A DNA stretch of 60,934 nt, the filler included, from Myxococcota bacterium (GTDB taxonomy: Bacteria > Myxococcota_C > UBA6777): the NCBI GenBank assembly GCA_023150835.1. It is 3 parts of 3 records of this genome, joined end to end, with 100 filler letters (N's around TTAATTAATTAA, not from the genome) between each part and the next. Parts side by side here need not be neighbours in the genome. Positions count along the whole stretch, not along the records: positions 50,114 to 60,934 come from JAKLKB010000173.1; 2 more parts are not named here. The stretch is one strand, 5' to 3'. A program made the position numbers and the translations under genes. The notes under the pieces are model-generated. The model saw only the letters and a list, made by a program, of their open reading frames with translations, had not been told where the DNA came from and made no database searches. The first letter of the stretch is position 1, and every line of letters begins with the position of its first letter. Shown here in pieces: positions 50,114-51,975 of the stretch.

Positions 50114-51447
50114 GATTGGAAAGGGCGTTGAAGTCGCTTCGAGAGGGGCTAGAGCAACAGAGAGTGGAACGGGCGTTGGAGCGGAAACGTCGGATGGTGA
50201 GGAGGTACATGGCGCGGGGGAAAAGAGAAGAAGGGCGGTCGTTGGGGAAAGCGCGCGAATGGTATGCGAAGGCGTGCAGCTTGGGAGAAGGTGGAGGGTG
50301 TGCGAAGGCTTGGGAGATGGGGCTGAAGTGGTGTAACCGTGCGGAATCGGAGCCGTCGAAGTGGGGCGATGTGGATGGATGGTACAAGTCGGCGTGCGAG
50401 AAGGGATATGCGGAAGGCTGCAAAGCGCGTGGTAAGGCATGGTTTGCGCGAGGAAAAGGGATGGCGGGGGAGGATCGAAAGCTTGCGTTGTATTGGCTGA
50501 AAATGGCGTGTGGGGTCGGGCATGCCGAAGCTTGTCAAATGCCTGAAGGCTTAAAAGCCTTGGAGAGAGGGAAAGCACTGGAGGGTCTTTCGTTATCGGA
50601 GGCGTTGGTGTGGTATAGCAAGGCATGCAGCTTGGGGCAGGAAGAGGGTTGTAACAGTTTGGAAAGGCTGCCGAAGACGTCAGGAGGAGCGCTTACGGTA
50701 AAGGGAGCGACATTCGCGATGCGCTGGATTCCAGCGGGTTCGTTCACGATGGGGAGTCCAGAGAATGAGCCGAATCGAAGTTCGTCAGAAGGGCCACAGC
50801 GGAGTGTCACGATCAGCAAAGGATTCTGGATGTTAGAGAGCGAAGTGACCCAAGGGCAGTACAAGGCATTGATGGGGTCGAATCCATCGCATTTCTCGTC
50901 GTGTGGTGACAACTGTCCTGTGGAAAAGGTGTCGTGGGATAATGCGCGAGTGTTTGCAAACAAGTTATCGGAAGCGCAAGGATTGGCGGCGTGTACAGCG
51001 ACGGACAAGGGGATCTTCGATTGCAAGGGGTGGCGACTGCCGACGGAAGCGGAGTGGGAATATGCAGCGCGGGCGGGAACAACGACGGCTTTTCATACAG
51101 GAGATTGCCTCTCGACGGATCAAGCGAACTACGATGGGAAGAACCCGCAGACTGGTTGCGAGAGGGGAGAGTATCGGGAGAAGACGATAGAGGTGTGTAG
51201 CTTGGCGCGGAACGCATGGGGACTGTGCGATATGCATGGGAATGTGGGGGAGTGGGTAATGGACGTGTACGAGGATTCCTATCGCGGGCTGTCTACGCGA
51301 GATCCACTGTGCTCTATCGGGCGTTCGCTCCGCGTGATTCGCGGCGGCAGTTGGTTCAGCGTCGGCAGGTTCGTGCGTTCGGCGGATCGCAGCTGGGACG
51401 GCTGGCGTAACAACCGTGTCGGCTTTCGTCTTCTCTGGTCCCCTTGA
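50114..51447 (+). CDS. 5'-truncated coiled-coil + Sel1-like repeats + FGE-sulfatase (C-type lectin fold) protein; putative DGR target
   Basis: WY.KAC..G...GC repeats; FTMGSP, EVTQGQY, PVEKVSW, RLPTEAEWEYAARAG, GLCDMHGNVGEW, RVIRGGSW, VGFRL. Confidence 0.9.
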
Positions 51448-51975
51448 CCGTCTCCCCTTTTACGGTTTGACCGTCTACGAAGAGTGCGTGGTAGGAAAGA
51501 GAGAAGTTGGGAGTGTAGGTGTTCCCAAGGAACGAAGGGTGGAGCGTCGCAAAGAGCCGCCCCCAAAAGGCGGCGAAGAAGACGCGAGAGCCTTCGTCTG
51601 GGACGTTGCGGCGTTGCGCAGGGAGAGGATGGTGGGATGTTGGGGATAGATGCCGTTGCAGAGGATGTGCAGAGAAATCAACCCATCGTGGGGGCGGGAG
51701 CAAAGCATCGCGAAAAAAATCTCTCGACAACGCGCAAAAGGTGCGGCAATCTAGGCGACGGTTTTCTGCATAGGAGTCATGCAGTTGAAAGGCGATGCGT
51801 AGAAAAATCAACCCGTTGTAGGGGTGGTTTGCGAAGCGCCCGCGCCGACAAGTCAGCCTGTTGTCGGGTCGGTTCGTGAATCGACCAAAGCGACATATCG
51901 GCTTATTTTGTATCGAACTGCGTAATACCTATCCACAATAGAACACACATTCCGCGTCCAAGTAGGGAGGAAACA

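Follow-up and report, generated by a model that had tools for sequence, protein, structure and literature searches.

Is the 3′ end of a lectin-fold gene at the edge of a draft-genome contig still being rewritten by a diversity-generating retroelement (DGR), or is it the relic of one? The gene belongs to a Myxococcota bacterium (lineage UBA6777; GenBank assembly GCA_023150835.1, here G000) and opens contig C122, one of three contigs joined in the stretch of DNA analyzed here (the window; 60,934 nucleotides, filler included). In a DGR, a reverse transcriptase (RT) copies a template repeat (TR) and misreads its adenines, and the resulting cDNA replaces the 3′ end of a target gene, its variable region (VR). 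The last 38 codons of the C122 gene, which encodes a protein of the formylglycine-generating enzyme (FGE) sulfatase family (window 51334-51447; hereafter the C122 tip, or C122 copy), had been proposed by eye to be the remote target of a DGR encoded elsewhere in the genome (the original prediction). We find two DGR cassettes and ten well-matched targets in this genome, and no template for the C122 tip itself. Overall, we lean, cautiously, towards reading the tip as an orphan and probably frozen VR, derived from a DGR and from a template lineage separate from the two that were assembled.

Window 50116-51447, plus strand: FGE-sulfatase / C-type-lectin-fold gene, an open reading frame (ORF) of 443 aa as read (Pfam PF03781; contig map; AlphaFold2 model)

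The window consists of contigs C72 (1-30856), C73 (30957-50013) and C122 (50114-60934); the joins at 30857-30956 and 50014-50113 are N runs around TTAATTAATTAA, and closeness across them does not imply genomic linkage. Within the C122 gene, the tip is set apart by its composition: adenine makes up 9.6% of it, compared to 24.1% of the 405 upstream codons, third positions are C or T in 76% of codons (29% upstream) and A in none (20% upstream), and all five of its glycine codons are GGC, a codon used for 3 of the 47 upstream glycines (GGG 23, GGA 14, GGT 7). Among all sliding 38-codon windows of the gene, those over the tail have the lowest adenine content and the highest third-position C/T. The A-poor, NNC/NNT-rich tip with uniform GGC glycines that had first drawn attention to this locus is thus borne out by the counts.

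The G000 assembly (7.56 Mb in 239 contigs; completeness 93%, contamination 2%) contains five matches to the RT family PF00078, one each on C183, C63 and C185 and two on C85, and none on the contigs of the window. The matches on C63 and C185 lie beside templates, in line with the earlier expectation that both RT and template would be encoded outside the window:

C63, about 17537-17647, minus strand: TR1, after avd and a DGR-type RT gene
C185, 9743-9853, minus strand: TR2, after an HRDC gene and a second DGR-type RT of which the C-terminal part is present

TR1 reads ...GTG AAT CGA GGT GGT AGT TGG AAC AAC AAC GCG AGG AAC..., very close to the template that the original prediction had sketched. 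The C63 Avd scores 86.9 bits against NCBIfam DivGenRetAVD (cut-off 80) and matches Pfam bAvd with an E-value of 3.4e-15, and the best Protein Data Bank (PDB) match of the C63 RT (RT1), which carries the motif IGNLTSQHFAN, is the Bordetella phage DGR RT (8ub7, E 2e-35). As assembled, RT1 loses its frame immediately ahead of the catalytic YMDD through a 23-nt deletion (C63, L014 about 5020-5090), a size that follows from the spacing between LDH and MDD, which is 14 residues in the intact RT of a family relative and in the phage enzyme bRT and 19 nt in C63. In the second cassette (RT2; C185, L017 3627-4757), the HRDC gene runs, as assembled, into the RT ~14 residues before YMDD, leaving the C-terminal third only, with avd and the RT N-terminus missing; no N-terminal half for RT2 was found in the assembly. 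Both assembled DGR RT genes therefore look broken. The C183 RT is not a DGR RT: its open frame of >830 aa (L009 1129-3618) fuses a group-II-intron-like RT to a PrimPol-like C-terminus, with matches to TIGR04416 (E 3e-79, below the cut-off of that model) and NF040561 (E 5.5e-16).

Directly 3′ of TR1 lies a local FGE gene (C63, L014 3343-4113, minus strand) in which the conserved TGG immediately after RGGS is replaced by an in-frame TGA. Its tail stays in frame beyond the TGA (YFNLWYARAAYRDPYGTSGRSSGFGFRLVRY) and shows 29 non-adenine mismatches to TR1; to judge from its sequence, this gene is a broken local target. No template besides TR1 and TR2 was found in the assembly by a six-frame scan for Asn-rich RGGxW...GFR or by an adenine-tolerant scan of both strands, which seeks sites matching a VR except where the genome has A; a scan for AAC/AAT density was dropped in favor of the six-frame motif scan, being noisy in a genome whose non-coding strand is A/C-rich. 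Across six genomes of the order, a 15-nt template motif occurred in G000 only, at TR1 and TR2.

Ten paralogous FGE/C-type-lectin genes fit one of these templates almost solely at adenines, with 0-7 other mismatches. The counts below are adenine-site / other mismatches to the template over a 90-nt core:

TR1 target C204: 17 / 0
TR1 target C182: 23 / 1
Same-genus ortholog of C182 (L030), against TR1 of G000: 17 / 0
TR2 target C221b: 18 / 0
TR2 target C221a: 12 / 1
TR2 target C9: 18 / 2
TR2 target C118: 14 / 2
TR2 target C99: 14 / 3
TR2 target C58: 18 / 4
TR2 target C211: 22 / 4
TR2 target C120: 13 / 7

A further tail of the TR2 family, on C13, carries 11 non-adenine mismatches. The C182 gene and its same-genus ortholog both encode a caspase-PEGA-FGE protein, and their flanks are 95-97% identical. 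Since their VRs differ at 27 sites of which 26 are TR1 adenines, with the flanks conserved, a TR1-type element was at work after the split of G000 and the same-genus lineage. Two more tails, on C62 (21396-21506) and C147 (3265-3375), differ from one another at 26 of 135 nt, of which 24 fall at codon positions 1-2; their backbones are otherwise identical, and the 300 nt upstream of them are 90% identical. No template for them was found in the assembly, and the pair would seem to be sibling VRs with a third template in common, one lying outside it. The endings of these tails differ by group: TR1 targets end in ...GFRLLRY, TR2 targets in ...GFRVVRSSP and similar, and C62 and C147 in ...GFRLLRH.

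With this family in hand, the simplest account of the C122 tip can be weighed, namely that it is an ordinary FGE-sulfatase C-terminus that no DGR ever touched, RGGSW...R.A.R....GFR being the consensus of the family. Members outside DGR systems, e.g., PorK/GldK, carry VVRGGSWKDVARFIRSATRS...GFR, and the Pfam domain does span the tail (PF03781, aa 202-440 of the C122 protein, E 7e-47). We nonetheless consider this account very improbable: the switch in DNA composition is abrupt and limited to the tail, paralogs in the same genome are proven VRs, 9 of the 12 aligned codons equivalent to AAY in TR1 keep the third base of TR1, and the nearest homologs differ mainly at AAY-equivalent positions.

A current VR pairs with a template repeat and departs from it almost solely at template adenines. 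The C122 copy aligns to the two templates as follows:

Window 51334-51417, plus strand: VR-like core GTG ATT CGC GGC GGC AGT TGG ... CGT AAC AAC CGT, aligning to the 90-nt cores of TR1 and TR2
Window 51405-51406, plus strand: site of a 6-nt (2-codon) gap relative to TR1 and paralogs, at its best codon-gap placement
Window 51418-51435, plus strand: 3′ boundary segment GTC GGC TTT CGT CTT CTC, resembling an initiation of mutagenic homing (IMH) sequence, from the alignments

Compared to TR1 codon by codon over the 90-nt core, the C122 copy shows 17 adenine-site and 13 other mismatches in addition to the 6-nt gap; in an ungapped comparison, its non-adenine mismatches number 17 to TR1 and 19 to TR2, the latter alongside 22 at adenine sites. 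The copy thus lacks the adenine-specific pairing seen in the true VRs. Among the changes at non-adenine sites of TR1 are two of GGT to GGC, two of GCG to GGC and a CGC to CGT, and several adjoin the 3′ boundary, i.e., the part that is always rewritten by homing given the directionality of DGRs. TR1 and TR2 are separated by 12 non-adenine differences, and since the C122 copy is as far from either as they are from one another, its backbone constitutes a separate lineage, not that of a lightly decayed TR1 or TR2 target. The adenine-tolerant scan, run on both strands with the 111-nt tail and with four 48-nt pieces, found neither a template nor a sibling VR for the C122 tip in the assembly, returning only the copy itself and partial likeness to TR1 and TR2. 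The original prediction of a remote DGR target thus stands as regards DGR ancestry and machinery elsewhere in the genome, and falls as regards current targeting by a demonstrable template. Against itself, it had counted the lack of an RT or template in the genome together with a lack of adenine-specific differences; RT genes and templates do exist, and none of the templates differs from the C122 copy in an adenine-specific manner.

Upstream of the tip, the gene includes a further region of note:

Window 50116-50700, plus strand: Cys-rich Sel1-like repeat region upstream of the lectin-fold domain (Sel1 match; C204 DNA identity)

The Sel1 match is sub-threshold in Pfam (26.8 bits, with a cut-off of 30.7 bits), and at the DNA level the region shares 92% identity with the paralog that lies at the end of C204. 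Nucleotides 1-677 and 680-966 of C122 are 91.8% and 88.5% identical to the C204 gene, and nucleotides 909-1162 are 83% identical to the C147 gene, as opposed to just 66-71% identity between the C122 tail and any paralog. The C122 gene thus appears to be a mosaic within a family of 38 FGE domain matches by tblastn, or ~36 copies, in the assembly. Its reading frame begins 3 bases into the contig, so that the 5′ part of the gene is probably absent; C122 opens with 40 bases that are also the last 40 of C204 on the reverse strand, indicating an assembly break at a repeat. The possibility that C122 and C204 are alleles of one locus from two strains was rejected, as their similarity ends with the gene, which makes them paralogs.

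This kinship with C204 gives some substance to the idea that the tip is a former TR1 or TR2 target that drifted after its last rewriting. The first 966 nt of the two genes are 88-92% identical, their 3′ flank and 15 nt of boundary segment are common to both, and intermediate stages of decay can be seen in the TR2-family tails of C120 and C13 (7 and 11 non-adenine mismatches). We judge such drift improbable, as the C122 backbone lies 13-17 non-adenine sites from TR1 and 19 from TR2, compared to 12 between the templates, its differences take in consistent synonymous changes at fixed codons (GGT to GGC twice, CGC to CGT), and its composition shows no drift towards the codon bias of the C122 gene itself. 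Moreover, the ...LLWSP that follows the VR matches the RSP-type ending of two homologs described below (P0001 and P0002), not the RY-type of TR1 targets or the RSSP-type of TR2 targets.

Beyond the core, the 3′ end of the C122 copy has these features:

Window 51445-51490, plus strand: stop codon and the 3′ sequence after it, with homology to the C204 and C182 target flanks (three-way MAFFT alignment)
Window 51444-51453 and 51467-51476, plus strand: two copies of the direct repeat TTGACCGTCT (sequence match and MAFFT alignment)
Window 51447-51466, plus strand: 5-bp stem ACCGT...ACGGT, arms 51447-51451 and 51462-51466, unsupported as a structure

The VR-like core ends 28 nt ahead of the stop codon, at the 3′ end of the gene, and is followed by a boundary segment common to other targets, of which 15 nt (51421-51435) are identical to the segment of C204, a true TR1 target. 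The blocks CCCTTTTAC and GTCTACGNAGAG are common to the 3′ flanks of C122, C204 and C182, and C122 lacks ~21 nt present in the other two. The direct repeat that had been reported after the stop codon is there in two copies, the second of which straddles the junction of the 21-nt gap; 0.14 matches to this 10-mer would be expected in the window, a figure that carries little weight for a repeat picked post hoc. The stem reported alongside it likewise has its two arms, and folds no better than chance: the minimum for 51425-51500 as DNA is -8.1 kcal/mol, compared to -7.27 +/- 1.95 for shuffled sequences (z -0.43; 62 of 200 shuffles equal). A downstream hairpin acting as a DGR target-recognition element was therefore rejected, the fold being at shuffle level and the stem absent from the C204 and C182 flanks. 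In the DGR of Bordetella phage BPP-1 (Avd, bRT, TR, Mtd), a GC-rich IMH and a downstream hairpin have a role; the C122 copy, unlike that system, has neither a GC-rich IMH nor a significant downstream hairpin.

Next, we compared the C122 tip, which ends in ...VGFRLLWSP, to its relatives outside this genome. In a collection of 5.8 billion proteins, the closest were P0001 and P0002 (80% and 74% identity over the last 200 aa), both ending in ...VGFRLLRSP and differing from the C122 copy mostly at positions that are AAY codons in TR1. Both keep a 12-residue loop with APAER, compared to the 10 residues of C122 (SWDGWRNNRV), in which the 6-nt gap takes out the Ala-Pro part that is conserved in the second variable loop. 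From RSAxR to GFR, the loop has 12 residues in 47 of 51 homologs, 11 in two, 16 in one, and 10 solely in the C122 copy (51 parsable tails out of 63 aligned sequences, the other 12 not fitting the expression); 44 of the 51 have a proline in it. The genome encoding P0001 was absent from species representatives and from five family genomes, and no natural variants of the tip were found as protein fragments (55-175 aa, resembling the last 100 residues).

Contigs from other samples were compared over the same region. An 834-nt contig from run X5 (window 50853-51686) and contigs from run X6 (51071-51900), from two other studies, show 0 differences from the window, whole tip included; these are comparisons of contigs, not of raw reads. 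Runs X10 and X12 have no cover over 51356-51431 and 51274-51514, which we take as evidence of nothing. Elsewhere in the gene, at window 51028-51068, which encodes GWRLPTEAEWEYAARAG, all four sludge runs show a 10- to 40-fold increase in summed contig depth, and many contigs diverge from the window on both sides of this segment; GWRLPTEAEWEYAARAG is a conserved family motif common to the FGE genes of many other organisms.

These patterns can be set against the most substantial alternative, namely that the tip is a live remote target, still rewritten from a third or fourth template by an intact RT in the unassembled part of the genome. Several observations fit: the assembly also lacks the template of the clean sibling pair C62 and C147, both assembled DGR RTs are damaged, so that the RT of any working DGR would be unassembled, TR1-type diversification has occurred since the same-genus split, the NNC composition of the tip is undecayed, and its IMH-like end is conserved. 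The template that such rewriting calls for is, however, absent from the assembly, as is any sibling VR with the C122 backbone. In public data, two exact scans with the C122 backbone pattern, one of metagenome and one of genome contigs, each requiring 38 exact bases, found no template. A 24-nt flank specific to the C122 locus had no exact match among metagenome contigs; these collections may lack the genome of the window and its near relatives. Furthermore, the loop deletion is private, unseen in 50 of 50 other homologs, and the tip is identical in the contigs of two other studies. On this evidence, we regard a live target as possible, though unlikely.

A broader version of the same idea appears somewhat more doubtful still. 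Three to four DGR template lineages would serve at least 13 targets, with mosaic genes swapping tips and N-terminal modules (Sel1, caspase-PEGA) by recombination; the lineages would be RY-type (TR1), RSSP-type (TR2), RH-type (C62 and C147, template unseen) and RSP-type (C122, template unseen). The C122 tip would then be a live target, rewritten from a fourth template outside the assembly with a second loop two residues shorter than that of any other family member in the comparison, and this DGR would be diversifying an altered binding-site geometry.

Under the reading that we favor, that of an orphaned and probably frozen VR, the bacterium carries a large target family and at least two DGR cassettes, and the C122 tip would once have been written by a DGR, which would account for the A-poor, NNC/NNT-rich end of a TvpA-like C-type-lectin-fold binding domain. 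The copy would belong to its own template lineage, with tails ending in ...VGFRLL(R/W)SP and a template absent from the assembly, and it has its private 2-codon deletion in the second variable loop. The VR would be an orphan that is now fixed and is no longer rewritten, and would still encode a folded ligand-binding tip with one frozen specificity. Six points weigh against this reading. First, the composition of the tip is still template-like (third-position A 0%, C/T 76%), which disfavors long neutral decay. Second, with its 3′ boundary identical over 15 nt to that of C204, the segment may still be recognized by DGR machinery. Third, an assembly that is 93% complete demonstrably lacks at least one template, that of C62 and C147, so that the missing C122 template is weak evidence. 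Fourth, the 6-nt deletion is uninformative on decay if the unseen template had the same deletion. Fifth, adenine specificity in the P0001/P0002 lineage was judged from protein alone. Finally, the X5 and X6 contigs, whose flanks are identical too, may represent the same clone, and contigs hide rare variants.

What the tip would do can be approached from the predicted structure. Modeled with AlphaFold2 from 63 aligned sequences, aa 196-443 reach a mean predicted local distance difference test score of 92.2 and a predicted template modeling score of 0.91. In the PDB, the model most resembles Treponema denticola variable protein 1 (TvpA; 2y3c, E 4.5e-19, TMq 0.82, 32% identity), followed by PvdO and formylglycine-generating enzymes, and the C122 protein thus has the FGE-type, TvpA-like fold with its variable residues in C-terminal loops. 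The catalytic cysteine pair of FGE presumably lies in the C-terminal segment after RGGS, going by its position in human FGE. The C122 tail has no cysteine between RGGSW and GFR (FSVGRFVRSADRSWDGWRNNRV), and the match to the human FGE sequence ends at query residue 223, ahead of the tail; the protein thus lacks the cysteines of a catalytic FGE. The most fitting reading of the C122 protein is a binding module rather than an enzyme.

Several features of the surrounding sequence were recorded alongside. The last 40 bases of C122 recur, reverse-complemented, at the start of C73, positions 164-518 of which are an inverted copy (94%) of C122 10371-10724. Tandem or near-tandem repeats at window 49421-49996 and 52359-53279 give rise to long repetitive ORFs on both strands, and C122 2316-2869 holds internal copies with 82-89% identity. 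A 2466-aa ORF on the plus strand (53097-60497) is rich in predicted coiled-coil-like sequence and matched no Pfam family at E <= 0.001. A dispersed element of ~60-80 nt (...AAATCAACCCGTTGTAGGGG...) lies at window 51770-51846 and 52726-52788 and has copies with 80-93% identity on ~20 further contigs of the assembly, resembling a repetitive extragenic palindromic (REP) sequence or a miniature inverted-repeat transposable element (MITE). On C73, a contig other than that of the FGE gene, three adjacent genes at window 46201-49443 match bpMoxR (E 5e-61), ivWA (E 4e-17) and fvmX5 (E 3e-13), a MoxR-vWA 'ternary' conflict-system set.

The system as a whole is of a known kind. One account describes, in Treponema, up to seven non-adjacent targets of a single DGR together with an HRDC accessory gene, and reports remote, non-adjacent targets and FGE-sulfatase targets (PMC5758913). 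As for the T. denticola DGR and TvpA, the VR here sits at the C-terminus of an FGE-type C-type-lectin fold, an HRDC accessory gene is present, and one template has many targets, with TR2 serving at least eight dispersed ones. Unlike the remote VRs of Treponema, which match their TR except at adenines, the C122 copy matches neither TR1 nor TR2, and the N-terminal module of the C122 protein differs in consisting of Sel1-like repeats. For Thiohalocapsa PB-PSB1 and other multicellular bacteria, Dore et al. 2024 (PMC10907252) report genomes that hold several DGR loci, incomplete ones among them, and remote targets that are served in trans; they also report RT genes that are disrupted, VRs with no perfect match elsewhere and one TR-matching target that no longer varies, as well as caspase-like and other effector domains on DGR targets, with MoxR-vWA ternary conflict systems associated. 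G000 is alike in its caspase-PEGA-FGE target and in the bpMoxR-ivWA-fvmX5 set on another contig of the window, and unlike in belonging to another phylum and in showing a private loop deletion besides the missing template. Compared to BPP-1, the genome shares an Avd, a DGR-type RT and true VRs that are adenine-specific, and differs in that the system is cellular, the target fold is FGE-type instead of Mtd-type, and the genes follow the order avd-RT-TR; in a family relative, HRDC lies upstream of them.

No new mechanism is involved, since earlier work has described DGRs with incomplete cassettes, with VRs that match no template and with numerous remote lectin-fold targets. The locus is of value as a worked example: inspection by eye picked up a composition signature from which DGR machinery elsewhere in a draft genome, and very nearly its template, was correctly predicted, and a VR-like tip proved not to be, by itself, proof of a live target. 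Beside two damaged RT genes, the genome also holds VRs at successive stages, perfect at one end (0 non-adenine mismatches), in decay in between (7-11) and orphaned at the other; how DGR targets arise, are exchanged by recombination and become frozen could be studied on such a series. Should a closed genome reveal an intact RT and more templates, the DGR repertoire of this organism would rank with the richer cellular ones, and its phylum is one known for multicellular behavior.

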